Source of the DNA: an uncultured Candidatus Saccharibacteria bacterium
GTDB taxonomy: Bacteria > Patescibacteriota > UBA1384 > XYA2-FULL-43-10 > 1-14-0-10-43-13
DNA: 32,000 nt
NCBI GenBank assembly: GCA_964543385.1
Contig: CAZIYE010000001.1
Location: forward strand, 540,001 to 572,000
Direction of reading: 5' to 3'
In this document: positions 4,000 through 28,372 of the stretch, piece by piece
Layout of the letters: every line of letters begins with the position of its first letter
Position numbering within the stretch: the stretch's first letter is position 1
Made by a program: the position numbers and the translations under genes
The notes under the pieces: generated by a model
Database searches by the model: none
What the model saw: only the letters and a program-made list of their open reading frames with translations
Told to the model about the DNA's origin: nothing

Positions 4000-4596
4000 A
4001 TGAATGGGAAGCGTCATTGGAGTGTCACTGGACCGTCGAACGGTTGGTTGCAGGATGGCACCGGATTAGTCAGCCCATGGGGGCAGATAATCTTCGTCAC
4101 CGATGGCAAGGTGACGGAACCGCGCATCATCGATGCGGGCGGGGCGATTGTGATCGCTGCGAATTCCCACGGCGAGATCGCCATGGTATATCGCGAGCGG
4201 TCCGTATTACCTGCATGGAGCAAGAAAGAGTCGCTCCCCATCGTGGACATGCCGGCATTCCTGGCTCGGCTCGAGGAGAATCCTCCTGAGCTCGAACTGA
4301 TCCGGGCCTATACGGCTCCGGATCTCACCATTGATCAGGCTGCCATGGTAGTGGCGGCAAGATACGGCATACCCGAGGCACATGCCAGTGGTACCGAGCT
4401 TATCGGAGAAGTATTCCTGTTCGGCCATACGCCGCAGCCGAACCCTATCATCTTGCTTGGTGTGATAGGTCGCCCCGAGCTTTCCGACGGGGCGTTCTGG
4501 ATGCCGGCCGCGGAAGTGAAGAAGGCCCTCGCTTCGGGAAAAATCCGCGATGCCTCCACTGGGACCGCGTTGGGCATTCATTTCGCCCAAATGTAA
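4000..4596 (+). CDS. Nudix-fold (ADP-ribose pyrophosphatase-like) protein with degenerate Nudix box; about 60 % GC island gene
   Basis: Longest ORF in the GC-rich island. I prefer ATG 4000 (GAGGT SD 7 nt upstream) over the track's TTG 3937, which would lie at or before the predicted TSS. By-eye similarity to NudF-type proteins: GGAIVIAANSHGEIAMVYRER at the N-terminal side and WMPAAEVKKALASGKIRDASTGTAL at the C-terminus. The REx2EE core is replaced. Confidence 0.6.
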   Translation: MNGKRHWSVTGPSNGWLQDGTGLVSPWGQIIFVTDGKVTEPRIIDAGGAIVIAANSHGEIAMVYRERSVLPAWSKKESLPIVDMPAFLARLEENPPELELIRAYTAPDLTIDQAAMVVAARYGIPEAHASGTELIGEVFLFGHTPQPNPIILLGVIGRPELSDGAFWMPAAEVKKALASGKIRDASTGTALGIHFAQM

Positions 4597-4610
4597 TAGT
4601 GCGTTGGCTT

Positions 4611-4635
4611 GGGAGATCGCTTGTTTGCATCTCCC
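4611..4635 (+). terminator. GC-clamped hairpin downstream of the island gene (terminator-like, no clean U-run)
   Basis: GGGAGAT (4611-4617) pairs with ATCTCCC (4629-4635) across an 11-nt loop, 15 nt after the stop codon. Confidence 0.4.
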
Positions 4636-4686
4636 ACCACCCCTCTTTGCTCAAATCTTGAGCTCGAAGGCAGTGGTAATAATATT

Positions 4687-4715
4687 TTGACAATTTTGTG
4701 CGAATAGGTTATTGT
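4687..4715 (+). promoter_or_regulatory. Candidate promoter of the metK leader
   Basis: TTGACA (4687-4692), a 17-nt spacer, then TATTGT (4710-4715), about 20 nt upstream of the riboswitch P1 stem. Confidence 0.4.
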
Positions 4716-4733
4716 AACAGTACAACTTAATAT

Positions 4734-4832
4734 ATTTATCAAGAGTGGCGCGAGAGTTTTGGCTCTATGACCGCCCAGCAACCTCAAGGAAACTTGAACG
4801 GTGCTAATTCCAAGCCTCACGGCGAGATAAAA
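4734..4832 (+). promoter_or_regulatory. SAM-I (S-box) riboswitch aptamer
   Basis: UUAUCAAGAG..GAGAG..UGGCUC.AUGA..GCAACC..GGUGCUAAUUCC..GAGAUAA matches the conserved S-box blocks in the correct order. P1 is formed by TTATC (4736-4740) and GATAA (4826-4830). It lies directly upstream of metK. Confidence 0.85.
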
Positions 4833-4841
4833 CAGTAAAAT

Positions 4842-4867
4842 ATCTTGCTTAACGGCAGGATTTTTTT
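4842..4867 (+). terminator. Intrinsic terminator (riboswitch expression platform)
   Basis: AUCUUGC (4842-4848), loop UUAACG, GCAGGAU (4855-4861), with the U-run continuing to 4867. It ends 23 nt before the metK ATG. Confidence 0.8.
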
Positions 4868-4890
4868 AAAACTAAACAAAGGATAGACAA

Positions 4891-6075
4891 ATGGAAGAGC
4901 CAAAAAATAAAAAAGTAAATAATTATCTTTTTACCTCAGAATCAGTGACCGAGGGCCATCCAGATAAAATGGCTGATCAAATCTCAGATGCTATTTTAGA
5001 CGAATTACTCAAAAAAGATCCACTTTCGAGGGCAGCTGTCGAAACTATGCTGACAAACGGAGTTTGCATTATTGCTGGCGAAGTCACAACTGACGCTTAT
5101 GTTGATATTGCAAAGATAGCTCGATCTGTCATCGAAGACATAGGTTATGACGGTTGTGGCTTTCACCATGCTTCCAGCGGCGTTATGACAGCAATCAAGG
5201 AACAATCATCGGATATTGCCCGTGGCGTTGATAGCTTCGAAAGAGTTGACGGCAAAATAGTAAAGGAAGATTTAGAACAATTGGGTGCCGGCGACCAAGG
5301 CTTGATGTTTGGCTATGCATGCACAGAGACCAAAGAACTTATGCCCTTGCCGATAACTTTAGCTCATGCTCTCTGTGAGCGTTTGTCAAAAGTAAGAAAA
5401 GCAGGGATCATAATGGGCTTATATCCTGATGGAAAATCTCAAATAACCATTAAGTATAAAGATAATAAGCCGGTAAGGGTACATACAATTTTGATTGCTG
5501 CTCAGCATGAAGAGGAAAAAGATCAAAAAATCTTGCAAAAAGAGATTATTGATTTTGTTATTAAGCCGGTTCTTGCAATTTATGATCTTGGTATTGATAA
5601 CGAGACTAATATTTACATCAATACTACCGGAAAGTTTGTCATAGGGGGCCCACAAGGGGATACAGGACTTACTGGCAGAAAGATAATAGTTGATACTTAT
5701 GGCGGCTACTCTCGTCATGGCGGCGGTGCTTTTTCTGGCAAGGATCCTTCAAAGGTTGATAGATCTGGATCGTACATGGCTAGATGGGTAGCTAAAAGTG
5801 TGGTTGGCTCAGGTCTGGCAGAGAGATGTGAAATACAAATATCATACGCTATAGGCAAGCCAGAGCCATTATCAGTTTATGTAGATACTTTTGGAACTGG
5901 TGTCATCCCAGACTCCGAGATCAAACAGAAGATACTTGATAACTTTGATTTTAGGCCAGGTATGATAATCAAAGAACTGGATTTGCGAAGGCCTATTTAT
6001 CGACAATTAGCAGCTTACGGTCATTTCGGCCGCCCGGATCTTGATCTGCCTTGGGAAAAGATTAGAAAAATATAA
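4891..6075 (+). CDS. metK: S-adenosylmethionine synthetase
   Basis: 394-aa ORF with hallmark motifs [36 protein letters not shown] and [16 protein letters not shown]. An AGGA SD is present. Confidence 0.97.
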
Positions 6076-6101
6076 GTTCTTCATGTGAAATATTTTCCTC
6101 A

Positions 6102-6175
6102 TGTCATTGCGGACTTGATCTGGAATCTTGAGCTCTCAGATCCTAAGTAGACGACTTCGTTGGTTTAGGATGACA
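6102..6175. repeat. REP-like palindromic element pair (GTCAT-hairpin ... hairpin-ATGAC)
   Basis: TGTCAT-tgcggaCTTGAtctgga (a degenerate hairpin) followed by ATCCTAA..TTAGGAT-GACA. The outer ends TGTCAT and ATGACA are inverted. Same family as 10792-10855. It sits between convergent metK and the flippase gene. Confidence 0.5.
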
Positions 6176-6198
6176 ACTTTTAATTCAAATTCATAGGA

Positions 6199-7632
6199 CT
6201 ATTTTGTATCAGCTTTTATAAGCGATCTAACCGATTGTAAGCTGATAATATCGAAGAGATATGCGAGAACAAAAAAGAAAGCAGCTGAAATTATCATACT
6301 CGGAATAAAATGAAGTGCTAAAATTTTTAGAATTAGAGCAAAAGCCAAAGTTACTATTGCTATAAAAACAGTTTTTACAACATTGATGAGGTCAATTTTG
6401 AACGGTATGATTCTTCTTGTGTTATAGAGGAAAATAAAGAATAAAACAATCTCCGATATCAATGTACCGTAAGCGGCTGCCATATATGAATATTGGGGTA
6501 TAAATACCAGATTGAAGATAAAATTAAAGAGTAAAATAAATGCAGAAATCTTTAATAGCAATTTTCTCTCGTCTTTTGCTATTAAAATTTCTCCAAGCAG
6601 GATATCAAAATACAGAAAAGGCAGTGCAAGAGAAAGTATTATCAACGCCGATCCTCCGATACTATAGCTTTCGTTACTCAAGAAGGCGATTATTTCTTTT
6701 GAATAGGCGCAGGATATAGCTGCTATTGGTAGAGAAATAAGCATCATCGCTGTAAATGATTTTTCAATCAGGCTTTTTAACTGGGATGCATTATCTATAC
6801 CGCGAGAGATAATCGGTTTGAGTGAATTTGCAAAATATGAACCGAAGAAGACAGTTACCTCTAAAATTTTGTAGGCTACAGAGTAAATACTAACTGCCAC
6901 TGCTCCCTTGATTGCAAACAGCATAATAGTATCAAGTCTGAAGAATAGGTTATTGGCAATAAATATTATGCCCATCGGCCAAGCCAGATCAAATATCCAT
7001 TTGGTAATTTTTTTCTCATAACCAATTTTGATAGGTGTAAACTTGCTGGCGAAGTACCATTTGAAGACAAAAATTAGAATGCCAGACAATGCTACCACCG
7101 AGAAGACAATCCAGAGGAAGTTGCCTTTCAGAGTCACAACTACAATTAGCGCAGCTAAGGAAATAAGCTTGCTCAAAAATTCTGCGACAGCTGAAAATTG
7201 CATCTTCAGTCGGTGTTGCAAAATCATATCCCCAATACTACCCATTAGGTTGAAGAATAGAAAACCACAAGCAATCATTATCCCAAAAACAAGATTATGG
7301 TCATTGCGATATGGTGTTAGATATATAATGGCAATTGCTGCAAGACAGGCGAGCAAAGATGAGACTAAACGTATAAAGAAAACATTCGAGATGATTCTTT
7401 TCTCGCTGGAGGGATCTTTTGAAATCTCTCTGACGGTTACGGAAAATAGACCAAGATCAGCAATGACGAGAAAATAATTTACATAAGCTGTGATTGTATT
7501 GAGATTCCCATAATCAGTGTTTGAGAGATAGTTTGTTAGGATCTTTATAGAGATAAGGGTAAACACCAAAGTAACGATTCGTACAAGAATCTGGGAGGCC
7601 GTATTTATAAATATAGCTCTACGTTCTTTCAT
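6199..7632 (-). CDS. Polysaccharide/oligosaccharide flippase, MOP superfamily (Wzx-like)
   Basis: 477-aa ORF with about 14 TM segments. The N-terminus, FINTASQILVRIVTLVFTLISIKILTNYLSNTDYG, is typical of Polysacc_synt flippases. Its start overlaps the stop of the upstream gene (TAATG). Confidence 0.8.
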   Translation of the reverse strand: MKERRAIFINTASQILVRIVTLVFTLISIKILTNYLSNTDYGNLNTITAYVNYFLVIADLGLFSVTVREISKDPSSEKRIISNVFFIRLVSSLLACLAAIAIIYLTPYRNDHNLVFGIMIACGFLFFNLMGSIGDMILQHRLKMQFSAVAEFLSKLISLAALIVVVTLKGNFLWIVFSVVALSGILIFVFKWYFASKFTPIKIGYEKKITKWIFDLAWPMGIIFIANNLFFRLDTIMLFAIKGAVAVSIYSVAYKILEVTVFFGSYFANSLKPIISRGIDNASQLKSLIEKSFTAMMLISLPIAAISCAYSKEIIAFLSNESYSIGGSALIILSLALPFLYFDILLGEILIAKDERKLLLKISAFILLFNFIFNLVFIPQYSYMAAAYGTLISEIVLFFIFLYNTRRIIPFKIDLINVVKTVFIAIVTLAFALILKILALHFIPSMIISAAFFFVLAYLFDIISLQSVRSLIKADTK

Positions 7633-8915
7633 TATTTTAGATCCAGAGTTTTTACCATTTTACGGAGATGATTATTTTTTCTTCCACTTATTATTATAGT
7701 AGTTAGAGCGACAAGAAGTATCAAAATAACGCTGGTTAATATGATTGAGGCTATACGGAAATCGATTTTGTCATACCACTTTTTGACTTGTTCTTTTGCT
7801 TGTACAACAATAGGCTCTTTTGCATCATCAGCAGTTAATACGTTTATTACCCCACCCTTTTTCTGTGAAATTTCAAAATAAGTAGGATCACTTTCTGGAG
7901 TCAATATTTTTTCATTTTGACCCTGAACTGTGAGTTTGTAACGGCCGGCTTTGATAGGGAAGTCAATCAGTAGCGCAAATTTACCAGTTTCATCAGACTT
8001 TACTGACAGGGTTTTACCTTCAGGTAAGGTAATCGCTGGGTCAAGTTTGAGATTAGCAGTAAAATTCGGCTCGGTGATCCCTACTATTTTAAAGCCTGAG
8101 AAAGTACCATCTTCAATATTATTGATATAATCATCAGTCTTTGTAAATTCGATCCGACTAGGTTTCGCTAGCCCTTCTTGTATTTTTGGATCTGGTTCCT
8201 TGATTGTAACTTTAAAATGAGTTACAGGGCTCCAGCCATCGCTATTTTTGGCTTTAATATGGAAATAATAAGCTCCGATTGCTTTGCCATCATAAGTGAC
8301 AGTGGTATTGGCATCGATTACTGTCGATGGAGGAGTGGTATCAGCAACTTGATCAAGTAAATATGCAAACCCAGTTACATTGCTGGCTTTTGTCCAATTT
8401 AGAGTAATCGAGGTACCATCATAGGCAACGGCCTGATCGGGGTGGGTTGTGGAGGTAACTGCGGTAGCCCCAGGTAGTTCGAGTGCGCGCTGGATAGGGA
8501 AGGAGGCGCTGCCTCCGGATGTACCGAGAGTAGCTGACCCATTTTTAAGAACTACGTTAGAAACTGAGACTGACCCAGTACCAACCCCTGTGGCTTTTAA
8601 TTTGATAGTAGCTACAGTAAATGATGTTACCTTCTGACCAAGTAGGGCTCCGGAAAATGAGCCGTTGGCAGACGGTTGAGTTATCCAATTGGCGCTACCT
8701 GCTGAGAAAGAAACAACTGAAAGCGGTCCGGATACAGCAATCTTGCCTTGGAAGGCGTTGAATTCTCCGCCGCTCGCTACAATATTAGCAGTAAAAGTTT
8801 GCCCGACAGTCTTGCTTCCACCTCCACTGACTGATATTCCGGCAGCAAAGACATGACTTGGTAGGATAAGAGCCAACAAAGTAATAAATGCTAAAGTTGA
8901 TATTATTTTTTTCAT
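7632..8915 (-). CDS. Membrane-anchored surface protein with N-terminal cohesin-like domain
   Basis: Signal peptide MKKIISTLAFITLLALILPSHVFA. It is followed by a cohesin-like beta-sandwich pattern (GQTFTANIVASGG..FQGKIAVSGPLSVVSFSAG..FTVATIKLKATGVGTGSVSVSNVVL). Next come an FN3-like domain (THPDQ..YYFHIKAKNSDGWSP) and further beta domains. The protein ends in a C-terminal TM anchor. Confidence 0.65.
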   Translation of the reverse strand: MKKIISTLAFITLLALILPSHVFAAGISVSGGGSKTVGQTFTANIVASGGEFNAFQGKIAVSGPLSVVSFSAGSANWITQPSANGSFSGALLGQKVTSFTVATIKLKATGVGTGSVSVSNVVLKNGSATLGTSGGSASFPIQRALELPGATAVTSTTHPDQAVAYDGTSITLNWTKASNVTGFAYLLDQVADTTPPSTVIDANTTVTYDGKAIGAYYFHIKAKNSDGWSPVTHFKVTIKEPDPKIQEGLAKPSRIEFTKTDDYINNIEDGTFSGFKIVGITEPNFTANLKLDPAITLPEGKTLSVKSDETGKFALLIDFPIKAGRYKLTVQGQNEKILTPESDPTYFEISQKKGGVINVLTADDAKEPIVVQAKEQVKKWYDKIDFRIASIILTSVILILLVALTTIIISGRKNNHLRKMVKTLDLK

Positions 8916-8968
8916 ATTAGATCCCTTCTTTTATGTGTATTTTTGTTTTTATTTTATTACTGTAGACG

Positions 8969-10198: not shown

Positions 10199-10210
10199 TT
10201 CCCTCTGCTT

Positions 10211-10744
10211 TTATTGTGGTTGGCTGCCTATATAATCTTTTTGTAAGACATCCAACCTTGATTTTAAGAGATCACTCTCAGGATTAGCGGCAAGGCCGGC
10301 TTCCAACGTGCTTATAGCCTGATCTTTTTGTCCTAAATTGTATTGAGCCTGAGACTTGCGGTTGTAATAATCCGGGACCTTATTATCAATATTAATCGCT
10401 TGACTAAAGTTTTCTACGGCTTTGTCCCAACTCTTTTCGGTCATCAAGGTTTGTCCCTCACTGAAGTAATCATTTGCACTTTTTGTTTCTGGTATGGCAT
10501 CGATCTTTCCAGTATCTTGATTTGTTGATGGTACGTTATCGATAGCAGTTATAGTGCCAGGACTATTATCAATATTTGCCAAATCCTGTGTTTTTTGATC
10601 ATTCCTTTTATGGAGATACAAAAAGATTGCCAATACAATGAGTGAAATTACCAGAATAATAGTCAGAATAAGGATCAACCTTTTGGGACGACCTTTAAAA
10701 AAGTGACCGCTGGCATTTTTTATATCTGCTTGCTCTTTCATCAC
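10211..10744 (-). CDS. Membrane-anchored TPR-repeat protein
   Basis: 177-aa ORF with an N-terminal TM (LILILTIILVISLIVLAIFLYL). The C-terminal TPR-like repeats include WDKAVENFSQAINIDNKVPDYYNRKSQAQYNLGQKDQAISTLEAGLAANP. It is the first gene of the minus-strand operon. Confidence 0.7.
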   Translation of the reverse strand: MMKEQADIKNASGHFFKGRPKRLILILTIILVISLIVLAIFLYLHKRNDQKTQDLANIDNSPGTITAIDNVPSTNQDTGKIDAIPETKSANDYFSEGQTLMTEKSWDKAVENFSQAINIDNKVPDYYNRKSQAQYNLGQKDQAISTLEAGLAANPESDLLKSRLDVLQKDYIGSQPQ

Positions 10745-17409: not shown

Positions 17410-17480
17410 GTTTAATCATTTCCTTACTATAATTATTCTTGCGAAGCAATCTATTCTTTTGGCACTCTCTATATAACTAA

Positions 17481-17514
17481 AGTACGCCTGATCCCCGAAG
17501 GGAACAGGCGTACT
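17481..17514 (-). terminator. Very stable hairpin with UUCG tetraloop downstream of the lipoprotein gene
   Basis: AGTACGCCTG (17481-17490) pairs with CAGGCGTACT (17505-17514). On the minus strand the apex reads UCCC-UUCG-GGGA and is followed by UUUAGUU. It lies 19 nt after the stop and may also terminate the convergent GT4 gene. Confidence 0.7.
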
Positions 17515-17533
17515 TGATACTTGGCAGGGAAAG

Positions 17534-18298
17534 TCAGCGACTAAATCCCATGCCGGGGTCATCTGGTAAACCGGTGACCGTGTAGGTGGTGGTTTCTTCT
17601 ATTGTTTCTCCAGTGTCAAGGTTTGTCACGATGACATGGAGGGTGCCCTCGCCATTAGCTGCGGCGTAGAAGCCATCAGCTGTTTTGGCCAGTGCATTTC
17701 TTTCTCCCGGGACATCCCACTCCGTTTTGATATGGTACCACGAGGTACCAAAACCAATGCGGAAGTAGTGTGCACCGGTGATACTAAAATGCCTGGTGCG
17801 ATCTGGCATGACTTGGGCCATGTCTCCAACGGTTGTGTCAAAGACAGTTGTTAATGCAGTGCCAATAGGCGGTTTGGGATTGCAGATAAAGATATACTCA
17901 CCTGCATTCCATTTGAAGGCGCCCTGTTGTGCAGTCGCAGTTGCAGTGTAGGCTTTGCCAGCCGCAACTATGGTGCTCAAGGTTGGCATAACTCCTTTTA
18001 CATCATTGCTGATGCTCAGGCCCCCCCCAGGGGTGTTTTCGGTCTCGGTCACTTTGATCGTGACCTCTATTGGTAGCGGCTGGGGTGACCAGGTGGCGAT
18101 TGCCTTCAAGGTCGTGCCAGCGGTGAGCTTGGTCGTACCCTCGGAGAGGGTGACCATGTTTCCAGCGCCATCCGTGAAACGGAGGCTGAGCCGGGGTTGC
18201 TCGTTGGAAGTCGAAGTGGCACCAGTGCCACAGCCGGCCAGAATTCCGGCGCAAGCGATGATGAGCAACAGGCTCATGGCTGAGAGGATACGGCGCAT
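17534..18298 (-). CDS. Lipoprotein of unknown function, beta-rich/Ig-like C-terminus; about 60 % GC island gene
   Basis: 254-aa ORF. Its signal peptide carries the lipobox MRRILSAMSLLLIIACAGILAG-C. An AAGGAGA SD lies 6 nt upstream. The C-terminal GEGTLHVIVTNLDTGETIEETTTYTVTG looks Big_2/Ig-like. Overlapping ORFs in other frames are GC artefacts. Confidence 0.75.
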   Translation of the reverse strand: MRRILSAMSLLLIIACAGILAGCGTGATSTSNEQPRLSLRFTDGAGNMVTLSEGTTKLTAGTTLKAIATWSPQPLPIEVTIKVTETENTPGGGLSISNDVKGVMPTLSTIVAAGKAYTATATAQQGAFKWNAGEYIFICNPKPPIGTALTTVFDTTVGDMAQVMPDRTRHFSITGAHYFRIGFGTSWYHIKTEWDVPGERNALAKTADGFYAAANGEGTLHVIVTNLDTGETIEETTTYTVTGLPDDPGMGFSR

Positions 18299-18364
18299 CG
18301 ATTTTCTCCTTATGCTTTCTTCAGCTGGTGGGATGATCCCATCGTCAGCTTAAAAACTTGCTAT

Positions 18365-18522: not shown

Positions 18523-20625
18523 ATGTACACAATTGCGATGATCCTGGCGCTTGGTGCCGCCATTGTTTCTATTATTTACGGCCTTATTTTGGTCATGAGC
18601 GTTAATAAGATGCCTGCTGGCAATAAGAAAATGGTTGACATTGCGAAAGCAATCCAAGAAGGCGCGATGGCGTTTCTAAATCGCCAATATTCCGCTGTTG
18701 GCATGGTTGCCGCAGTTCTCTTTGTAATATTGCTTTATGCACTTGGCTGGAAAATTGCCGTTGGCTTCTTGGTCGGCGCAATCTTTTCTGCTTTGGCTGG
18801 CTATATCGGTATGAATGTTTCCGTTCGCGGAAATGTCAGAACTGCTGAAGCTTCCAGAAAGGGTCTGCCATTTGGCATGGATGTTGCTTTCAAGTCAGGA
18901 ACTGTGACTGGAATGCTTGTTGTAGGTTTAGCACTTCTCGCGGTTGCTGGGTATTATGCACTCACCAAAGACATCAACGCCCTGATCGGTCTTGGTTTCG
19001 GCGGATCTCTTATCTCAATTTTTGCTAGACTTGGCGGCGGAATCTTTACAAAGGCTGCAGACGTCGGAGCTGATCTAGTTGGCAAGGTAGAAGCAGGAAT
19101 TCCTGAAGATGATCCAAGAAATCCGGCTGTTATCGCTGATAATGTTGGTGATAATGTTGGTGACTGTGCTGGCATGGCCGCTGACCTATTTGAGACCTAC
19201 TCAGTAACTGCTATTGCTGCAATGCTTTTAGGACACCTTTTCTTCCCAGATTTCGAGAATGCAGTTTTATTTCCACTCATTCTTGGTGCTGCTTCAATCG
19301 TAACTTCAATTATCGGTAGTTGGTTTGTAAAGCTTGGAAAAAATTCCAAAAACATCATGGGCACTCTATATAGAGGTTTGATTGTTGCTGGTGTTTTAGC
19401 TGCTATTGCTTTCTACTTCATCACAAATTGGATGATGGCAGACAACGGACAATATACAACTCTTGAAATTTATCTGACAGCCTTGATTGGCTTGGGTGTC
19501 ACCGCTGCATTATGTATAATTACGGAATATTTTACTTCGACAAAATTTCAACCAGTCCAATCGATCGCACAGAGTTCTCAGACAGGTCACGGTACAAATA
19601 TTATCACTGGTTTGGCTGTCTCGATGAGATCAACAGCAATGCCTGTAATAGTTATTGGTGCTGCTATCTTGGGCGCTTACTCTCTTGCCGGACTTTTCGG
19701 TATCGCTATCGCCGCTATGGCAATGCTTTCAATGGCAGGTATCATCGTAGCTATTGATGCTTTCGGTCCAGTTGTTGATAATGCTGGCGGAATAGCAGAG
19801 ATGAGTGAAATGCCATCTGATGTTCGTGTTCACACTGATGCACTTGACGCAGTAGGAAACACTACAAAAGCTGTTACCAAGGGTTATGCTATCGGTTCAG
19901 CTGCTCTTGCCGCTATGGTTTTATTTGCTGACTACACTGAGAAACTTAAAGCAGCTGGTGGACATTATGCTTTTGATCTTACTGATCCAAAAGTTTTAGT
20001 AGGTTTATTTATTGGTGGCTTGCTTCCATATTATTTTGGTTCTCTGGCTATGGAGGCTGTCGGTAAGGCTGCTGGTGCTGTTGTCGAAGAAGTACGAAGA
20101 CAATTCCGCGAGATGAAAGGCATCATGGAAGGCAAAGTAAAGCCTGATTATGCTAAAGCTGTTGATATTGTAACTAAAGCAGCTATCAAAGAAATGATCC
20201 TTCCTGCTGCTATTACAGTTGCTGCTCCAATCCTAGTTGGCTTCTTGCTCGGTCCTGTTGCCCTCGGTGGCTTTCTGATTGGTACGATTATCACCGGACT
20301 TTTTGTTGCAATCTCGATGACTTCTGGCGGCGGTGCTTGGGATAATGCCAAGAAATACATCGAAGAAGGTAATTTCGGCGGCAAGGGCTCGATCGCTCAT
20401 CAAGCTGCTGTGACAGGTGATACTGTTGGTGATCCATATAAAGACACTGCTGGTCCTGCTATCAATCCGATCATCAAGGTTGTGAATATTATTGCTCTTC
20501 TGATTGCTGGTACATTGATCAAGGTTGAGCTCACAAATACAACCAAGATTGTAGTTGTTGCAGTTATCATTCTCGGTATTACTGCTTGGATGCTCCTCGG
20601 TAACAAGAAGAAATCTGTTAAATAG
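18523..20625 (+). CDS. hppA: Membrane-bound proton-translocating pyrophosphatase, K+-independent type
   Basis: 700-aa ORF with motifs [53 protein letters not shown] and [29 protein letters not shown] is present. Confidence 0.95.
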
Positions 20626-20633
20626 TTGAGACA

Positions 20634-20657
20634 ATGGCTCCGCGAATGCGGGGCCAT
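20634..20657 (+). terminator. Hairpin after hppA (terminator-like)
   Basis: ATGGCTCCGC-GAAT-GCGGGGCCAT forms 10 bp including one G-U pair. The U-run is weak (ctcttacatattt). Confidence 0.45.
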
Positions 20658-20685
20658 CTCTTACATATTTAAAGATAGTGGAAAT

Positions 20686-20958
20686 ATGACTAAGAAGATA
20701 ATATTGCCTGTTGCAGCCTTGTTGCTCTCGGTAATTATCTTTTTGTCATATCAATATTTCAGAGATTATCAGACAAAAGAACAGGAAGAACAGTACGAAA
20801 AACAGACTTGTGCCAAAGAGGGAGAAGAAACTTTTGAACTGGTCGCTGACGCTAATCCTAGAAATTGTTGCGCAGGGCTAAAACCTTTTCGTGATTCAGA
20901 AACCCGTCCAGATGGTAGCTCGTGGATTTCAGGGACAGAGATATGTGTTAAGAATTAA
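20686..20958 (+). CDS. Small exported/anchored Cys-containing protein
   Basis: I prefer internal ATG 20686, which avoids the terminator hairpin. MTKKIILPVAALLLSVIIFLSY is a signal or anchor sequence. The mature part has 4 Cys (C..NCC..C). Confidence 0.45.
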   Translation: MTKKIILPVAALLLSVIIFLSYQYFRDYQTKEQEEQYEKQTCAKEGEETFELVADANPRNCCAGLKPFRDSETRPDGSSWISGTEICVKN

Positions 20959-20977
20959 TTTATAAAGCTAATTGCCA

Positions 20978-21226
20978 ATGAAAACAGAACGAAGCAACAA
21001 AATCAGGTTCATCTTCGGTAGCGCTATTATTCTAATGGCAGTTCTTATTCTTTATAATGCTCTAAATAATGGTCCTAGCGATCACGCCTGGGCAAACTTT
21101 ATGATTTTGACATTACTGGGAGTCAGTTGGTTCTTGCCTCCGGTCAAAGAAATGTCCTTGTGGCTGTTTCTAAGAATATTAGTTATCATGGTGATGGCTT
21201 TTACTGCCGGTTATATCTGGAGATAG
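20978..21226 (+). CDS. Small membrane protein (3 TM)
   Basis: 82 aa from ATG 20978 (the track starts at TTG 20972). It is hydrophobic, and its stop abuts the next ATG. Confidence 0.45.
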   Translation: MKTERSNKIRFIFGSAIILMAVLILYNALNNGPSDHAWANFMILTLLGVSWFLPPVKEMSLWLFLRILVIMVMAFTAGYIWR

Positions 21227-21567: not shown

Positions 21568-23520
21568 ATGATAAAGAAAGATAAAGAAACCGCGAGAGAG
21601 GAAGATAAAGGGGAAAAGACAAAAGTAAAAATTCCTCTGAAATATTTGATTTTTGGCGGAGCAGGCCTCATCGTCCTGTCTTTGCTTTCTTTTGCTGCAT
21701 ATTCTATCGCTTTTCAAAATAAAAATTACATAAATCAATATGTAGGTACTATTAATCTAGGTGGCAGAGATAAGAATGATACTAAAAATGTTTTAAAAGA
21801 GGCAGCTGAGAAATATCAGAACTCCCAGATCGTTCTCAAGAACACAAACTTAAACAAAGTCTATAATATTGATCCGACAGAAATCGGCTTAACTTTTGAT
21901 GTAGATAGATCAGCAGATGAGATTTGGTCCTTCGGTAGAGGAGGAAGTGCCTTAGGAAATATGCTGGATCAGATAAAAAGCATTTTCGTTCGCAGAAATT
22001 TTGATTTGTTTATATCATTGAATGAAAAAGGCCTAAATCAAAAGATAAAAACAATTGCCGAAGAACTAGATAAACCTGAAAAAGATTATTCCCTTGTTTA
22101 CACTGGTAACGGTTTCGAAATCACAACAGAACGTGTTGCCGGTGAAAGGATAAACCAAGCTAAAATAGTATTGGATCTGAAAAAGAGCTTTTCTAGCCTA
22201 TCTACTGCTGAAAATATTTTCACAATCGATGTATATGAGCCAAAAGTAACGCTCGAGAGTGCTAATAAGACGCTGTCTGAGGCTAACGGGATTATTTCTC
22301 CGGGAGAATTAATAATAAAAGGGGAAGGCCAGGAATTCAAAGCAGATAAAGACACTATTGCTGGTTTTATAAAATCAAGCCACAATGGTAGCGATTTGGA
22401 GCTTGATTTTAATGAAGATAGGATAAAAAAGTTTCTCGACGTTGTTGCCAAGGCTGTCAATGTTGATGCTGGCAATGCAAAACTTAGAATGGAAAATGGC
22501 AAAGTGGTTGTTTTTAATCAATCAAAAGTTGGCAAGGCGCTCAAAATTGATCAGACAATTAATGAAATAAAAAGTGCATTACTGGCAAGAATTACTGGAG
22601 TCTATAACCAAGTCACATTAGTTGTAGAAAGTAAAAGCCCCCAAATTACCGAGACGGAGGTAAGTTCATTGGGGATCAACGAATTAATCGGAACTGCCAG
22701 TACTTCCTTCAAGGGATCTCCGCCAAATCGTGTTCATAATATAACCATAGGGGCAAATGGCTTGAACGGAGTTTTGCTCAAACCAGGTGAAGAATTCTCC
22801 ACTCTCAGCCATCTTGGCGTAATTGATGCCAGCGGAGGATATCTAGAAGAGCTTGTGATCAAAGAGAACAGGACCATACCAGAATTTGGTGGTGGGTTAT
22901 GTCAGGTCTCCTCAACTATTTTTCGTACAGCTATATATGCGGGGATGAAAATAACAGAGCGTAGCGCTCACAAATATCGAGTTGGCTATTTTGAGCCACC
23001 TATTGGCATGGATGCCACAATCTATGATCCGGCGCCAGATTTTAAATTTGTTAATAACTATAAGAGTCACGTCCTGATCCAATCAAGGATAGAAGGAACA
23101 AAACTTACATTTGATATTTATGGCACTAAGGATGGCAGAAAAATAGATGTTTCTAATCCTATAGCATTCGATTACGTTAATCCTGGCGAACCGATAATTA
23201 CTGAGACGGATACTCTACCTGCCGGTGAAAGAAAAAAAATTGAATCAGCACATCAGGGGGCAACTGCCAGATTTGATTATAAAGTGACGAGCGCTTCTGG
23301 GGACGTATTGCAACAAAAGACATTTGTCTCCAAGTATGTCCCATGGCCAGAGAAATGGCTAGTAGGTAAGGCTGCTGCTCCTGCTGTTGTCCCTGATCCA
23401 ATTCCGGCAACGCCCGAGACTCCGGCTCCATTGCCAACCACAACATGTACCGATGGAACTCAAAACGGTGATGAAACAGGTGTTGATTGTGGCGGAAGCT
23501 GCTCAGTCTGTGCGCAATAA
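21568..23520 (+). CDS. VanW-domain protein, N-terminal membrane anchor, C-terminal Pro-rich linker plus 4-Cys module
   Basis: VanW core GGGLCQVSSTIFRTAIYAGMKITERSAHKYRVGYF. TM segment LIFGGAGLIVLSLLSFAAY. C-terminus PAVVPDPIPATPETPAPLPTTTCTDGTQNGDETGVDCGGSCSVCAQ. ATG 21568 lies one codon inside the track's TTG start. Confidence 0.85.
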   Translation: MIKKDKETAREEDKGEKTKVKIPLKYLIFGGAGLIVLSLLSFAAYSIAFQNKNYINQYVGTINLGGRDKNDTKNVLKEAAEKYQNSQIVLKNTNLNKVYNIDPTEIGLTFDVDRSADEIWSFGRGGSALGNMLDQIKSIFVRRNFDLFISLNEKGLNQKIKTIAEELDKPEKDYSLVYTGNGFEITTERVAGERINQAKIVLDLKKSFSSLSTAENIFTIDVYEPKVTLESANKTLSEANGIISPGELIIKGEGQEFKADKDTIAGFIKSSHNGSDLELDFNEDRIKKFLDVVAKAVNVDAGNAKLRMENGKVVVFNQSKVGKALKIDQTINEIKSALLARITGVYNQVTLVVESKSPQITETEVSSLGINELIGTASTSFKGSPPNRVHNITIGANGLNGVLLKPGEEFSTLSHLGVIDASGGYLEELVIKENRTIPEFGGGLCQVSSTIFRTAIYAGMKITERSAHKYRVGYFEPPIGMDATIYDPAPDFKFVNNYKSHVLIQSRIEGTKLTFDIYGTKDGRKIDVSNPIAFDYVNPGEPIITETDTLPAGERKKIESAHQGATARFDYKVTSASGDVLQQKTFVSKYVPWPEKWLVGKAAAPAVVPDPIPATPETPAPLPTTTCTDGTQNGDETGVDCGGSCSVCAQ

Positions 23521-23540
23521 TTTATAAGAATAGAAAAAAG

Positions 23541-23569
23541 TTATCTTTTTAGTGTTTTGTTGGTACAAT
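23541..23569 (+). promoter_or_regulatory. Candidate promoter with extended -10 only 8 nt from the ATPase ATG
   Basis: TTATCT (a weak -35), a 17-nt spacer, then TGgTACAAT (-10 at 23564-23569). The ATG is at 23578. Confidence 0.4.
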
Positions 23570-23577
23570 AGGAACTA

Positions 23578-26175
23578 ATGAATGGGAGGGAATACTCTTT
23601 TTACCAATGGCCAGTCAAAGATGTCGAAAAACATCTGGAAACTGATGTTACCAATGGTCTTAGCAACAGCAAGGCCTCTTTTCGTTTGCAAAAATATGGA
23701 CCAAATACTTTAGAAAAGTTTTCGGAGGTTTCTCCTTTTACCATTCTACTGCGACAGTTCACAAATCTATTTGTGATAATTTTATTCGCTGCCGGCATGA
23801 TCTCTTATTTTGTTGACGGTTTGGTTCAAGCATTTATTCTCTTTGCCATAGTTTGCATAAATGTTAGTCTCGGTTTTCTTCAGGAATATAAAGCAGAAAA
23901 ATCAATTACAGCTCTGAAAAAATCTTTCTTTTCAAATGCCAAGGTAATCAGGGATGGTAAAGTTATATTAGTTGATAGCAGAGAAATAGTCTTGGGAGAT
24001 ATTGTTACCTTTGAAGCGGGAGATAAAATTCCTGCAGATATGCGATTAGTAGATGAGGAATCTCTTCAAATAAATGAGTCATCCTTGACTGGAGAATCGA
24101 TGCCCGTAAGCAAGAGCAGTGATACACTGCCCATAGATACGAGTTTGGCGGATAGAAAAAATATGCTATTTGGCTCCACAACCGTTTTAAAAGGTCATGG
24201 AAAGGGCATAATCGTTAGTACCGGTGCAGGGACCGAATTCGGCAAGATTGCTAGCATGGTAGATAAAGCTGAAGATACAACTCCACTAGAAAAACAGATC
24301 GCATACATTGCTAAGGTTTTTTCCTTAATAGGTATAATTCTTGCAGTCATAATATTTGTGCTTGGTTATGCCCGTGGATATGAGGTATGGAAATTGTTAA
24401 CATTCACCATCGCCCTGTTGGTGGCTGTGGTGCCTGAGAGTCTGCCGACAGTTATAACACTGTCTCTTGCAACTGGAGTAACTCGAATGTCACATAAAAA
24501 GGCCATTGTAAGAAAGTTGTCAGTGATAGAGGCTCTTGGTTGTGTGGATACAATTGCGACAGACAAGACAGGGACTTTGACCAATAATGAATTAGAGTTA
24601 GAGATTATATCCGTCCTTGAGGATGGTAAATTAACACCAATAACTTTATCTGCAAATAATATTAACAAAGAATCCTTAGAAATTATCTATCAAAGCTTGG
24701 CTTGTTCTAATATCGATATGAATAACGAAAAAGAATATATAGGTGATCCTGTGGAGATAGCTATAGCCAAGCGGTTGCAATCGCTTGGAAAAACAAAAGA
24801 TTTCCAATCAAAGGGATATGAGCGCTTAATGGAGATTCCTTTCGATTCTGATAAAAAATATATGGCTGTCCTCACCAGTTTTGAAGGCAAAAAGTTTTTG
24901 ATTTCTAAGGGATCTCCTGAAAGAATTATAAAATTCTGTTCATTTAAATCCGATATCGGAAAAGAGCATATCTTGTCTGAGGCAGCACGTCTTAGCGGGT
25001 TGGGGTATAAGGTAATTGCTTTAGCTGAAAAAAATATTGGGAAACTTTCTAGCAGTATTCTGTCTGGTATGAAATTTTGTGCGCTTCTAGTGATGATCGA
25101 CGAGCCAGCTGAAGGAGTCAAAGAGGCGATTAGAAAAACAATATCTGCTGGGATCAGGCCAATTATTATTACTGGCGATCACCCCGAGACGGCAAAGTTT
25201 ATTGCTAATAAATTAGGTCTAAAAGTAACTGATGATGAGATCATTTCAGAAAAAGAATTCGAACGTCTAGATCGCGCAGAATTAATCAGGGCACTTGGCA
25301 AGGTAAAAGTTTTTGCTAGAGTGACTCCCTCAGATAAGATAAAGATCGTCAGAGTGCTCCAGGAGATGGGATATTCGGTTGCTGTCACCGGAGATGGTGT
25401 AAATGATGCCCCGGCCTTAAAAGAGGCTTCAGTGGGCATAGCAATGGGTATAAAAGGTACGGATGTTGCTCGTGAATCGTCAGATATCATTCTTTCTAAT
25501 GACCGATACAATACTATCGTGTCTGCCATAGAATATGGTCGGACTATTTACGATAATATCAGAAACATTGTTACCCAGCTTGTCTCTGGAAATTTCACTG
25601 AAATATTTTTAGTAATAGTGGCATTTATTTTCGGTCTACCGATGCCATTTGTGACTTTGCAAATCCTCTGGATCAATCTGATAATAGAAAGTTTTGCCGG
25701 CCTTTCTTTCAGTTTCGAAAAACCAAGTCCGAATGTATTAAGAAGCAAGCCCAGAATATCCGGCTCAAATTCGATGAGTAAATCTATTATTTATGCTTCA
25801 TATCTCGCTGCATCATCTTTTGCTGTCTCTCTTGTTCTCTTTCTATGGGGATTAAATTCTTCTGTATCCAAAGCCAGGACACTAGTATTCTTTTTTATAG
25901 TCTTCTCCCAACTTTGTTTTGCCCTGTCAATAAGATCCAAGAAGAGGATATGGGAAAGTCCAAAAAGCTTTATTGAGAACAAATATTTATTGATCTCGGT
26001 TATTGCCGCTGTACTTCTCCAGCTATCGCTTCTTTTTGAGCCAGTTGCCCAGATATTTAGTATTACTGTTCCTAATTTCAGGGAGTGGATTGTCCTATCT
26101 ATCGCAGTTATAATTACTTTCTTATTTGCCGAAATCATAAGAAGCAAACACGACAGCCACTTGCATAAACGTTGA
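23578..26175 (+). CDS. P-type cation-transporting ATPase (P2-type, Ca2+/cation pump-like)
   Basis: 865-aa ORF. It has an N-terminal Cation_ATPase_N-like region and the motifs TGES, DKTGTLTNN, TGDHPETA, VTGDGVNDAPALKEASVGIAMG and PESLP in TM4. Confidence 0.92.
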   Translation: MNGREYSFYQWPVKDVEKHLETDVTNGLSNSKASFRLQKYGPNTLEKFSEVSPFTILLRQFTNLFVIILFAAGMISYFVDGLVQAFILFAIVCINVSLGFLQEYKAEKSITALKKSFFSNAKVIRDGKVILVDSREIVLGDIVTFEAGDKIPADMRLVDEESLQINESSLTGESMPVSKSSDTLPIDTSLADRKNMLFGSTTVLKGHGKGIIVSTGAGTEFGKIASMVDKAEDTTPLEKQIAYIAKVFSLIGIILAVIIFVLGYARGYEVWKLLTFTIALLVAVVPESLPTVITLSLATGVTRMSHKKAIVRKLSVIEALGCVDTIATDKTGTLTNNELELEIISVLEDGKLTPITLSANNINKESLEIIYQSLACSNIDMNNEKEYIGDPVEIAIAKRLQSLGKTKDFQSKGYERLMEIPFDSDKKYMAVLTSFEGKKFLISKGSPERIIKFCSFKSDIGKEHILSEAARLSGLGYKVIALAEKNIGKLSSSILSGMKFCALLVMIDEPAEGVKEAIRKTISAGIRPIIITGDHPETAKFIANKLGLKVTDDEIISEKEFERLDRAELIRALGKVKVFARVTPSDKIKIVRVLQEMGYSVAVTGDGVNDAPALKEASVGIAMGIKGTDVARESSDIILSNDRYNTIVSAIEYGRTIYDNIRNIVTQLVSGNFTEIFLVIVAFIFGLPMPFVTLQILWINLIIESFAGLSFSFEKPSPNVLRSKPRISGSNSMSKSIIYASYLAASSFAVSLVLFLWGLNSSVSKARTLVFFFIVFSQLCFALSIRSKKRIWESPKSFIENKYLLISVIAAVLLQLSLLFEPVAQIFSITVPNFREWIVLSIAVIITFLFAEIIRSKHDSHLHKR

Positions 26176-26202
26176 TCTCTTAGGAGTACTTAATATAATA
26201 AG

Positions 26203-26233
26203 AAAAATCCCCCGATAACTCCGGGGGATTTCT
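26203..26233. terminator. Bidirectional intrinsic terminator between convergent ATPase and pyrG
   Basis: AAATCCCCCG (26205-26214) pairs with CGGGGGATTT (26222-26231) across a 7-nt loop. There are A-runs and T-runs on both sides. Confidence 0.75.
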
Positions 26234-26234
26234 T

Positions 26235-27878
26235 CTATTTACCTGCTGCTTTAACGAAAGCTATAAAAAGTGGATGAGGTCGGAGCGGGCGTGAAGCTAA
26301 CTCTGGATGGAACTGTACTCCGACGAAGAAAGGATGACTTTCTACTTCTACGATCTCTACTAGATCTCTTTCAGGATTAAGACCACCTATTCTGAGTCCT
26401 GCTTTGGTAAGCTGTTCCCTATAATCGTTATTAAACTCATAACGATGGCGATGGCGTTCAAGAATCACTGGGAATTCACCTGGGTAGTCCTTGGCTTTAT
26501 AAGCATCATATGAGATAGACCCTTTTTGCAGTTCACAAGCATATTCTCCTAGTCTCATAGAGCCGCCGAAGTCTTTCTTCCGAAGTTTCTCTTTTTGATC
26601 TTTCATAATGTGAATTACTGGGTATGGAGTTTTGGAATTTATCTCTTCAGTATGAGCGTCCTTCAGGCCGCAAACATTACGGGCGTATTCGATAGTTGCG
26701 ATTTGCATGCCATAGCAAAGGCCAAAATAGGGGATTTTATTCTCACGACAGTATTTTGCTACAGCAATTTTCCCTTCGATCCCACGTGAACCAAAACCTC
26801 CAGGCACGATTACGCCGTCAAGGCTTTTTAACTCTGTTAGCTTCTCGGGATCTTCCTCATATGTAGTAGAGGAGAGCCAGACCATTTCTGGCTTGAAGCC
26901 TTGAGACCAAGCAGCATGTTTGACCGCTTCAATAACTGAAATATAGGAGTCAGATAATATGAATTCTCCTGTTTCGAAATATTTTCCGATAACTCCGATC
27001 TTGATCGGTTTATTTGCTTTCTTTGATTTATCGACAAAAGCTCGCCATTCTACCAAGTCTTTCCGTCTTGGTTTCAAGTGTAATCTTTTCAAGATCTTCT
27101 CACCGAGCTGTTCATTCTCAAAATTAACCGGAATTTCATAAATAGAATCGACGTCGGGTGCTGAGACAGCATTTTCTGGCAATATTGAGCAGAATGTGGC
27201 TAACTTTTCACGTCTCCTATCATCGATTGGATATTCACTACGGCATAGTATAAAGTCCGGTTGAATACCACATGAGTTAAGCTCTCTAGAGGCATGTTGA
27301 GTCGGTTTTGTTTTCATCTCCCCAACTTTTGATGGTATTGGCAAATATGAAACTAATACAAAGATTACGTCATTTGGATGCTCGAGCTTCATCATGCGGG
27401 CAGCTTCCAGAAAAAGCAGGTTTTCATATTCACCTACAGTTCCACCTATTTCGACAATAGAAATTTCAGCCTTTGTTTTTAAAGAAGCAGTTTCTATTCT
27501 ATTGATTATTTCTTCAGGTACATGAGGCACGACCTGAACACATTTTCCACCATATTCAAGATTTCTTTCTTTATTGATTACGGATTGGTAAATACGTCCA
27601 GTGGTCATGTAATTCATCTTTGTAAGATCCTCTCCGATAAAACGCTCATAGTTACCCATGTCTTGATCGGTTTCGTCTCCATCTTTGGTTACAAAAACCT
27701 CACCATGTTCAGTTGGGTTCATAGTGCCAGCGTCAACATTTACATATGGATCAGCCTTGATTGCAGTTACGCAGAAGCCTTTTGATTTTAGTATTGTTCC
27801 TATAGATGCTGCTGCAATGCCCTTACCTACAGAGGACATAACACCGCCAACTACAAAGATGAATTTTTTCGAAGCCAT
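26235..27878 (-). CDS. pyrG: CTP synthase
   Basis: 547-aa ORF. It has the N-terminal GGVMSSVGKGI, the amidotransferase nucleophile GLCYGMQ, and HRHRYE. Confidence 0.97.
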   Translation of the reverse strand: MASKKFIFVVGGVMSSVGKGIAAASIGTILKSKGFCVTAIKADPYVNVDAGTMNPTEHGEVFVTKDGDETDQDMGNYERFIGEDLTKMNYMTTGRIYQSVINKERNLEYGGKCVQVVPHVPEEIINRIETASLKTKAEISIVEIGGTVGEYENLLFLEAARMMKLEHPNDVIFVLVSYLPIPSKVGEMKTKPTQHASRELNSCGIQPDFILCRSEYPIDDRRREKLATFCSILPENAVSAPDVDSIYEIPVNFENEQLGEKILKRLHLKPRRKDLVEWRAFVDKSKKANKPIKIGVIGKYFETGEFILSDSYISVIEAVKHAAWSQGFKPEMVWLSSTTYEEDPEKLTELKSLDGVIVPGGFGSRGIEGKIAVAKYCRENKIPYFGLCYGMQIATIEYARNVCGLKDAHTEEINSKTPYPVIHIMKDQKEKLRKKDFGGSMRLGEYACELQKGSISYDAYKAKDYPGEFPVILERHRHRYEFNNDYREQLTKAGLRIGGLNPERDLVEIVEVESHPFFVGVQFHPELASRPLRPHPLFIAFVKAAGK

Positions 27879-27967
27879 ATTTTTCCCAAGATTAAGAATT
27901 AAGAGCTAAGGATTAAGCTCATACACACAGCTTAACTCTTACTATCTTATCTCTAATCCAAACAAGC

Positions 27968-28004
27968 AAAAAACTCCGGACGCAATTTTTTTGGAGTTTT
28001 TTTT
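27968..28004 (-). promoter_or_regulatory. Terminator-like hairpin in the pyrG leader (possible attenuator)
   Basis: On the minus strand: AAAAAAAACUCC, a 15-nt loop, then GGAGUUUUUU. A TATAGT -10 candidate (28016-28011) lies just upstream. No upstream gene on either strand needs a terminator here. Confidence 0.4.
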
Positions 28005-28068
28005 GAGGATACTATATCGTATTTAATGCCATTTTACAGAATTGCCAGAAATAATGCAAGACCTAAGA

Positions 28069-28097
28069 TTGACACAACAACACTTATCTTATATAGT
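28069..28097 (+). promoter_or_regulatory. Near-consensus promoter of the small GC-rich transcript
   Basis: TTGACA (28069-28074), a 17-nt spacer, then TATAGT (28092-28097). Confidence 0.55.
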
Positions 28098-28138
28098 GTC
28101 AACACAACGAACCCCCGATCCATTCTGAAGGAGACACC

Positions 28139-28297
28139 ATGGGAACAAAGACCGACGCTGCTGATCACAGCCAACAAACCCTACCGCCGGATGTTGCGCC
28201 GGTGCACGACTCTGTACTTGCCGATGGCACTGTCATTAAGGGGAATGAAGAATCCCCTCAGTCAGTGTCGCCCGACAAGAAGCCAATTAGCGGCTAG
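28139..28297 (+). CDS. 52-aa acidic, Pro/Ser-rich peptide (below the ORF-track cutoff); about 60 % GC island gene
   Basis: AAGGAGA SD 4 nt before ATG 28139. Translation: MGTKTDAADHSQQTLPPDVAPVHDSVLADGTVIKGNEESPQSVSPDKKPISG. About 41 % of codons start with G, which is a coding signature. There is no signal peptide and no recognisable family. Confidence 0.45.
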   Translation: MGTKTDAADHSQQTLPPDVAPVHDSVLADGTVIKGNEESPQSVSPDKKPISG

Positions 28298-28321
28298 TCT
28301 GCTTGGCACGTTCTTTCTCTT

Positions 28322-28349
28322 GGGTCCCCGTCGCTTGCGCCGGGGACCC
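28322..28349 (+). terminator. GC-clamped hairpin after the 52-aa ORF
   Basis: GGGTCCCCG (28322-28330) pairs with CGGGGACCC (28341-28349) across a 10-nt loop. No adjacent U-run. Confidence 0.45.
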
Positions 28350-28372
28350 TTAGCTTATCCCTGTCTATTTTT

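Follow-up and report, generated by a model that had tools for sequence, protein, structure and literature searches.

The stretch of DNA analysed here, referred to as the window, comprises 32,000 nucleotides of an uncultured Candidatus Saccharibacteria bacterium (assembly GCA_964543385.1, contig CAZIYE010000001.1, positions 540,001 to 572,000), and three of its genes form islands of raised G+C content (GC). In a 200-nt profile the background GC is 0.386 ± 0.047, and three sharp peaks rise above it at 4001-4600 (0.58-0.60), 17500-18300 (0.48-0.615) and 28100-28350 (0.51-0.55), with one open reading frame (ORF) under each. The ORF of island 1 (4000-4596, plus strand; 198 aa) has a GC of 0.585 and a third-codon-position GC (GC3) of 0.668, that of island 2 (17534-18298, minus strand; 254 aa) 0.544 and 0.584, and that of island 3 (28139-28297, plus strand; 52 aa) 0.553 and 0.566. 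They lie between the GT-C glycosyltransferase gene and metK, between hppA and the GT4 glycosyltransferase gene, and between pyrG and a nucleotidyltransferase (NTase) gene, respectively.

The remaining 24 genes, including hppA, groEL and pyrG, have GC of 0.33-0.44 and GC3 of 0.26-0.45, and the codon choice of the islands is opposite to that of the host, with CGC, CTC, ACC and ATC favoured over AGA, CTT, ACT and ATT. Relative to background windows of the same length, islands 1, 2 and 3 stand at z = 6.4, 5.7 and 4.4, each exceeding the background maximum. The composition of the islands is foreign-like at synonymous sites, with the deviation typical of classical horizontally acquired genomic islands (GC3 0.57-0.67 versus 0.26-0.45). 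The three sharp single-gene islands noted in a preliminary description of this DNA are thereby borne out; the uniform 60 % GC given there is not, as the ORF values are 54-58 % and the GC of island 2 is uneven along its length. A further bump at 8301-8700, in the ORF at 7632-8915 (minus strand), was considered as a fourth island and rejected, because amino-acid composition drives GC there: local values of up to 0.54 come from the second codon positions of a secreted Gly/Ser/Thr-rich protein (GC2 0.435, GC3 0.315).

Integrity of the junctions

Loci of relatives are labelled L### and homologous proteins P####. Contigs L001, L002, L007-L009 and L094-L096, from sequencing runs SRR12261223, 224, 225 and 227, are 100 % identical to the window over the island junctions, and L097 (JGI metagenome 3300045131) is 99.96 % identical. 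The island 1 protein, the lipoprotein of island 2 and the 52-aa peptide of island 3 are all encoded on these separately assembled contigs, and the contig ends (16795, 19031-19060 and 23469-23498) lie away from the island borders. Local assembly chimerism, one of the possibilities raised in the preliminary description, is excluded, since over the junctions five assemblies made independently in two projects agree at 99.96-100 % identity.

Island 1: the slot between GT-C and metK

Relatives of the first slot were found through the adjacent GT-C protein (77, 60 and 73 % identity in L091, L092 and L093, respectively). Homology of the flanks with these loci ends at 3880-3887 and returns at 4678-4703, delimiting an insert of ~800 bp (3881..4677, plus strand) that relatives lack at this position, between GT-C and the metK promoter. 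Two of them, L092 and L093, have an empty slot, where 17-23 bp stand in place of window 3881-4677 and GT-C abuts the metK promoter, so that the adjacency of GT-C to the metK leader, which the preliminary description proposed to look for in related genomes, does exist. L091 has a different insert of 540 bp with a GC peak of 0.53, and its ORF has no similarity to island 1 and no family match. A fused query of GT-C plus NTase returned only GT-C relatives, and P0012 and P0016 are too distant to have kept the GT-C/metK arrangement.

The ORF of island 1 is bracketed by AT-rich expression signals. A promoter-like site at 3901-3929 (plus strand; TTGACT-17-TATAAT with a TG extended -10, 11/12 consensus positions) lies in AT-rich DNA, followed by two small 5'-leader hairpins (3936..3972, plus strand; fold z = -3.4 for 3930-4000) and a Shine-Dalgarno (SD) sequence, GGTGA/GAGGT, that is weaker than AAGGAGA. 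Window 3897-3935 is 74 % identical to the promoter before the different L091 cargo. This similarity is borderline (score 28, shuffle maximum 27), both sequences being rich in AT and close to the consensus. After the stop codon, a conserved element at 4597..4638 (plus strand) containing the hairpin GGGAGATCGC..GCATCTCCC is 79 % identical to the element following the unrelated L091 cargo (local score 37, shuffle maximum 27). It can be written as the pattern GGAGATCGC-N(4-10)-GCATCTCC, and no copy occurs beyond this genome and L091 among the 177 loci scanned for it. The segments common to the window and L091 inserts diverge like the flanks, as resident DNA would, which indicates that the expression signals stayed and the ORF between them changed. 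Thus the AT-rich signals of slot 1 appear to be resident, and at island 1 the idea that cassettes were captured behind promoters already in place finds support, the promoter and hairpin being common to L091 with a different ORF.

The island 1 protein has no Pfam (E <= 0.01) or NCBIfam match, and a word-filtered search of 5.8 billion proteins retrieved only the protein itself. An exhaustive HMMER search of 1.84 billion representatives gave one full-length relative, P0005 (E 3.5e-8, 33 % identity), which scores 29.2 bits against Pfam NUDIX (PF00293; cut-off 21.1) and has an intact Nudix box; the island 1 protein itself stays below the NUDIX gathering score and is outside the family by that measure. 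In the Nudix box columns (alignment A2) P0005 reads GYAKKLETATETGLRESREEVGL and the window protein AYTAPDLTIDQAAMVVA-ARYGI. Of the pattern G-x5-E-x7-R-E-U-x-E-E-x-G-U, the first G, E, RE and EE are replaced in the window protein and the last G alone is kept. As the box is lost and the protein has no Pfam match, catalysis is unlikely. A two-sequence profile compared with PDB had as its best match the Nudix ADP-ribose pyrophosphatase 2yvm, at an E value of only 0.068. The likeness to such enzymes consists in the full-length alignment with P0005 and a C-terminal G-[KE]-I-[RQ]-D-A-S-T stretch, and the difference in a box that is degenerate here and intact in P0005. As a fair guess, island 1 may encode a degenerate Nudix-like ORFan, for which 'Nudix-fold' would be a statement of ancestry; 'Nudix hydrolase' is not supported. 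The earlier Nudix-fold label has a single remote homologue behind it, and the catalytic motif is missing. An AlphaFold2 model from the single sequence, in which the alpha/beta/alpha sandwich of the Nudix superfamily might have been recognised, was unusable (mean pLDDT 34.5), and seven matches of P0006 (1189 aa, Ig-like repeats) to residues 80-121 were set aside as a low-complexity/repeat artefact.

Two observations concern the surroundings of these genes in relatives. In L090 (180-2630), a patch of GC 0.41-0.47 encodes P0005 together with a HAD hydrolase and a DDE transposase; it edges a glycosyltransferase cluster of GC ~0.30 in a genome of ~31 % GC. A small gene of the bAvd / 23S-rRNA-intervening-sequence-protein family lies near metK in L091 (1407-1784) and L092 (1515-1898, adjacent to metK), and the equivalent position of the window has no member of this family. 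bAvd acts as an accessory protein in diversity-generating retroelements (DGRs), and no reverse transcriptase (RT) was seen in the L091/L092 loci.

Island 2: the lipoprotein gene between hppA and GT4

The island 2 product starts, as read from its sequence, with a signal peptide and a lipobox, LAGC at residues 20-23 (MRRILSAMSLLLIIACAGILAGC), that conforms to L-[AS]-[GA]-C and whose Cys is invariant in P0003 and P0004; it is accordingly a predicted lipoprotein. The gene is preceded by a promoter-like site at 18393-18365 (minus strand; TTGACA-17-TAATAT with TG, 10/12 consensus positions), in a region conserved in L004 and L005, and by AAGGAGA before the ATG, and is followed by a hairpin at 17480..17515 (minus strand) with 16-nt arms that are 94 % complementary. 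The 5' leader also has a small hairpin, GGGATCATCCCACCA, at 18320-18345; its 3' side and the island 1 terminator (GCATCTCCCACCACC, 4628-4640) have the 8-mer TCCCACCA in common, probably by chance.

Orthologues P0003 (68 % identity) and P0004 (52 %) occupy the same hppA-GT4 slot in two other genomes, represented by L003 and L005, and are GC-elevated there as well (GC3 0.59 and 0.50 versus 0.33-0.40 in the flanks). Lipoprotein genes are also present in this slot in L098 (GC 0.50), L101 (two genes, 0.59 each) and L158 (0.56), with GC3 of up to 0.72, and these proteins have no BLAST homology to the window protein beyond the signal peptide. GC-elevated homologues or analogues thus fill slot 2 in 6/6 relatives examined, a situation that the preliminary description had taken to speak for an old composition and not for recent acquisition; direct adjacency of hppA and GT4 was not seen in any of these six.

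The lipoprotein gene itself is highly divergent within a conserved setting. The hppA products of the L003/L004 and L005 strains are 99 % identical in amino-acid sequence (dS, the number of synonymous substitutions per site, 0.18), whereas the lipoprotein genes of L003 and L005 differ at 32 % of residues, with dS of ~1.95 in the mature-protein part. Between L004 and L005, hppA, the promoter and the signal peptide have an identity of 0.92-1.00; the value drops to 0.45-0.78 straight after the lipobox (~18259) and is back at 0.95 in GT4 (~17386), so that the breakpoints lie after the signal peptide and at GT4. The hypervariable segment (17440..18259, minus strand), made up of the mature-protein part and the 3' end, is roughly the GC-rich stretch. 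P0003 looks mosaic, with an N-terminal domain nearer the window allele, whereas signal peptide and C-terminal domain are nearer P0004. The alignments show that, even between near-identical strains, alleles of very different sequence have taken the place of the mature part. The ratio of nonsynonymous to synonymous rates (dN/dS) of 0.12-0.23 indicates that the gene is functional. Between the window and L003, dS is 0.90 in island 2 and 1.16 in the flanking hppA; since the two are close, island 2 has been present in the lineage at least since the split from L003.

An AlphaFold2 model of island 2 from three sequences was unusable (pLDDT 41); the modelling suggests at most an all-beta protein, perhaps of two sandwich domains, and the generic tandem Ig/FN3-like Foldseek matches to the model (TM score ~0.25) were not relied on. 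Downstream of hppA, window 20626-21226 contains two small ORFs (110 and 84 aa) to which no relative aligns, at a host-like GC of 0.38; L003 has a single 260-aa gene at that position, and this is another variable spot, here with no composition signal.

Island 3: the slot between pyrG and the NTase gene

Homology with relatives stops at ~28034 and restarts at ~28366, and no relative aligns to the intervening insert of ~330 bp (28035..28366, plus strand). In L098, L100 and L101 the slot is empty, the NTase gene lying within 200-235 bp of the conserved pyrG leader hairpin with no gene between, as had been asked of pyrG and the NTase gene in the preliminary description; the distance between the two start codons is about 200-235 bp in L098 and L101 versus 512 bp in the window. 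In L099 the slot holds an ORF different from that of island 3 (GC 0.55, GC3 0.63), preceded by a promoter-like sequence of its own, and in L158 yet another, with weakly elevated GC (0.47 versus a locus mean of 0.425).

The putative coding ORF of island 3 specifies a hydrophilic 52-aa product. It is preceded by a promoter-like site at 28069-28097 (plus strand; TTGACA-17-TATAGT, 11/12 consensus positions) and by AAGGAGA 6 nt upstream of the start codon, and a hairpin follows its stop codon (28322..28349, plus strand). The peptide has no match in family libraries, nor any tblastx match in the fetched loci of relatives, to which that search was limited. An interpretation as a structured non-coding RNA was rejected, as the fold of 28104-28345 has z = -0.65 versus shuffles and belongs to no Rfam family. 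In L003, the nearest relative for this region (1-21, corresponding approximately to window 28035 onward), a 93-aa ORF starts exactly at the island 3 start, and the locus ends there.

Just upstream of pyrG (minus strand), a hairpin AAAAAACTCC..GGAGTTTTTTTT flanked by A- and T-runs lies at 27968-28008. L098, L099, L100, L101 and L158 conserve it except in the loop, which varies. It resembles a terminator or attenuator of the pyrG leader and could be active in both directions. Bacillus and Lactococcus are known to have a CTP-sensing attenuator at pyrG.

Across the three islands, the promoter-like sites named in the preliminary description are present, at 10-11 of 12 consensus positions and with TG at islands 1 and 2; its strong SD stands for islands 2 and 3 and not for island 1; and its post-stop hairpins were confirmed for all three, none with a clean U-run and all unrelated in sequence.

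Organism and neighbouring genes

The host genome has ~39 % GC and belongs to Patescibacteria (Saccharibacteria-like), and the gene neighbourhood is typical of that group, with a large envelope-glycan cluster (GT2, GT4, GT-C/DUF6541, Wzy, flippase), metK behind a SAM riboswitch, hppA, pyrG and groES/EL. The closest hppA products in a species-level genome collection are 63-70 % identical and come from metagenome-assembled genomes labelled Saccharibacteria, Lloydbacteria, Uhrbacteria, Paceibacteria and other Patescibacteria; hppA was dropped as a genome-scan query for close relatives, being too conserved to discriminate. The SAM-I riboswitch in the metK leader (4733-4833; Rfam RF00162, 59.6 bits), which is conserved in L091, L092 and L093, has a promoter-like site ahead of it at 4687-4715. 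It was the sole match in an Rfam scan of the whole window, the islands thus corresponding to no known RNA family, and a tRNA scan of the window found none.

Composition, mobility and recurrence of the cargo

Islands 1 and 2 deviate from the host in different ways. At third positions, G and C are used equally in island 1 (G3/C3 0.35/0.32), whereas C is strongly preferred in island 2 (0.19/0.40), and the dinucleotide distance (delta*) between the two is 233, compared with 181 and 153 to the host, where the 95th percentile of host fragments is 126-130; island 3 is too short for a signature comparison. A single donor or event is disfavoured because G3/C3, dinucleotide signature and ages differ, and the earlier suggestion that equal GC implies one donor consequently falls. 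Islands 1 and 3 are lineage-specific inserts. The suggestion of a recent transfer is contradicted for island 2, which is old.

Hallmarks of mobility are missing from the window. No integrase or transposase domain occurs among the called genes around it, and neither tRNA target nor direct repeats of a genomic island are seen in it. The insert borders (3881/4677 and 28035/28366) have no terminal inverted repeats and no target-site duplication, repeats being at chance level, for which reason an insertion sequence or miniature inverted-repeat transposable element was rejected. An integron cassette was likewise rejected, as there is no attC-like common site and no integrase was seen, and the slot 1 element is found only here and in L091. 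Island 2 was considered as a DGR target and dismissed, since its alleles differ along the whole mature protein with indels; the window has no DGR template repeat, and the neighbouring genes no RT domain. Searches of the three island proteins against Pfam, NCBIfam, PADLOC and PHROGs and of the cargo proteins of relatives against Pfam, PADLOC and PHROGs gave nothing significant, so that a defence-system or phage origin is unsupported, and no relatives of islands 1 and 2 were found in viral contigs or plasmids.

Single GC-rich genes recur in more distant relatives. In L102 (11816-12697 and 13489-14166) and L103 (14422-15477 and 16792-18474) they reach a GC of 0.59-0.67 and a GC3 of 0.70-0.82, include ORFans, an HD-domain protein and a polytopic membrane protein, and alternate with host-like genes such as DJ-1/PfpI (GC 0.43). 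With the contigs taken as assembled, these two loci may represent a stronger version of the same phenomenon.

Origin of the islands

The alignments of relatives show variable occupancy of slots 1 and 3, empty in some close relatives and filled with different GC-elevated cargo in others. We consider it probable, with some reserve, that the three islands are accessory genes at recombination-prone slots between core genes, which arrived in separate events of different ages and not in one transfer. Their composition suggests a source pool of higher GC than the core genome. It is plausible that cargo and alleles enter via homologous recombination through conserved flanks or expression signals, and that the incoming DNA would be taken up from other cells. 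Island 2 probably encodes a surface lipoprotein on which diversifying selection acts; its role might be, for example, attachment to a host or phage recognition. Repeated import, selection, or repair biased towards GC at a hotspot of recombination may maintain the GC excess, three processes between which the data do not distinguish.

Several results weigh against the accessory-gene interpretation. No donor was found, islands 1 and 2 having no homologue in GC-rich organisms among the 5.8 billion word-filtered proteins, nor island 1 in the full reading of 1.84 billion representatives. In slot 1, the likeness of the two promoters reaches only borderline significance. A general rule by which non-conserved DNA in these loci is GC-rich was rejected by tblastx coverage: the unaligned window segment 20664-21213 has a GC of 0.38 and several unaligned segments in relatives 0.32-0.40. 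In island 2, substitutions from GC to AT balance those from AT to GC (15:18 and 9:10), which would weakly argue against decay of the GC excess; saturation of the outgroup allele makes this test weak. The analysis covers ~46 kb of this genome, and the count of islands applies to that part. In the Saccharibacteria literature, no account of such a pattern was found.

[quoted passage not shown] An association between gBGC and recombination is described for bacteria in part of a published source (PMC4450053), and would be in line with this explanation. The exchanged segment of island 2 also coincides with the GC-rich segment, and the excess persists over a dS of about 1 with balanced direction counts, although saturation weakens that test. 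However, relatives contain no homologue of islands 1 and 3 that could have been the starting point for evolution in place, and the insertion boundaries of both islands are sharp. To our knowledge, moreover, the gBGC effects reported in bacteria amount to a few points of GC3, not 20-30.

A more speculative proposal, also improbable, is that the clade keeps fixed 'expression docks' between core genes, each with a resident promoter, 5' hairpin and terminator hairpin, into which unrelated GC-rich ORFs from a common pool of distinct composition would be swapped with no recognisable recombinase; the lipoprotein dock at hppA would then include the signal peptide, and the pool might be derived from the host.

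It is very unlikely that all three genes were brought by one recent transfer, or came in several transfers from one high-GC donor, for instance an organism on which an episymbiont lives. Saccharibacteria live on high-GC Actinobacteria, and the Saccharibacteria/Patescibacteria-like lineage, the similar overall GC of the ORFs (0.54-0.585) and the lack of islands 1 and 3 in close relatives would fit this account. Against it, island 2 dates back at least to the split from L003, slot 2 has GC-elevated occupants in all relatives, and islands 1 and 2 differ in G3/C3 and dinucleotide signature. A GC3 of 0.57-0.67 is also far under what would generally be expected of an actinobacterium of 65-72 % GC, and in the large protein searches, which covered islands 1 and 2, their homologues are confined to AT-rich Patescibacteria-like contigs.

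A dedicated, integron-like system, in which a site-specific recombinase docks promoter-ORF-hairpin units or promoterless ORFs, appears highly improbable, even though a common promoter and post-stop element bracket two unrelated ORFs in slot 1 and relatives reuse these three slots for different cargo. No end sequence is common to the three islands, the slot 1 element is not found elsewhere in the 177 loci, and the borders, as described above, bear no terminal inverted repeats or target duplications; no integrase or transposase is called nearby, and the common ends in slot 1 diverge like flanks, as expected of resident DNA. Finally, an assembly chimera or contamination, with GC-rich reads of another organism joined into the contig, has a negligible probability and is refuted as far as assemblies can show, since despite the sharp composition steps the separate assemblies of four SRR runs and JGI 3300045131 agree over the junctions, no contig ends at an island border, and island 2 is syntenic in other species.

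These results show that one transfer event is not to be inferred from equal GC content. Patescibacteria have tiny genomes and depend on other cells, for which reason genes that vary between their close relatives are good candidates for roles in host range or phage resistance; three concrete variable slots are gained here, including a hypervariable lipoprotein locus that can be tracked across strains. Flexible genes richer in GC than the core run against the usual trend and, if they occur genome-wide, would constrain the source of DNA for these organisms.

Comparison with known systems

Integron cassettes resemble the islands in being single, unrelated, mostly ORFan genes, one of which is here apparently expressed from a resident promoter. 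They differ in that the islands are dispersed units, each with its own promoter-like site, and have no attC-like site, integrase or array.

Borrelia ospC alleles and Mycoplasma vlp/vsa genes belong to variable surface lipoprotein or antigen loci in which the 5' end is conserved and the mature parts are exchanged. Island 2 is similar in its conserved promoter, signal peptide and lipobox, its mature part with dS of ~1.95 versus 0.18, and the mosaic appearance of P0003. Unlike those loci, it has no tandem repeats, invertible or phase-variable element or visible silent cassettes in the ~46 kb, and its variable part is compositionally distinct from the genome.

A further parallel, for all three islands, is provided by chromosomal hotspots of horizontal gene transfer, also described as 'genomic islets' between conserved core genes. 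As in these, deviant accessory genes are located at fixed core-gene intervals (GT-C/metK, hppA/GT4 and pyrG/NTase) whose occupancy varies among relatives, and recombination through flanks needs no mobility genes. Acquired genes are usually richer in AT, whereas the cargo here is richer in GC than the core; each unit has a single gene, and in slot 1 the promoter and terminator appear to be kept with the ORF alone changing. On balance, the locus is likely to combine a known type of chromosomal hotspot with a variable surface-lipoprotein locus, and to be unusual in its GC-rich direction, its single-gene units and the retained expression signals of one slot.

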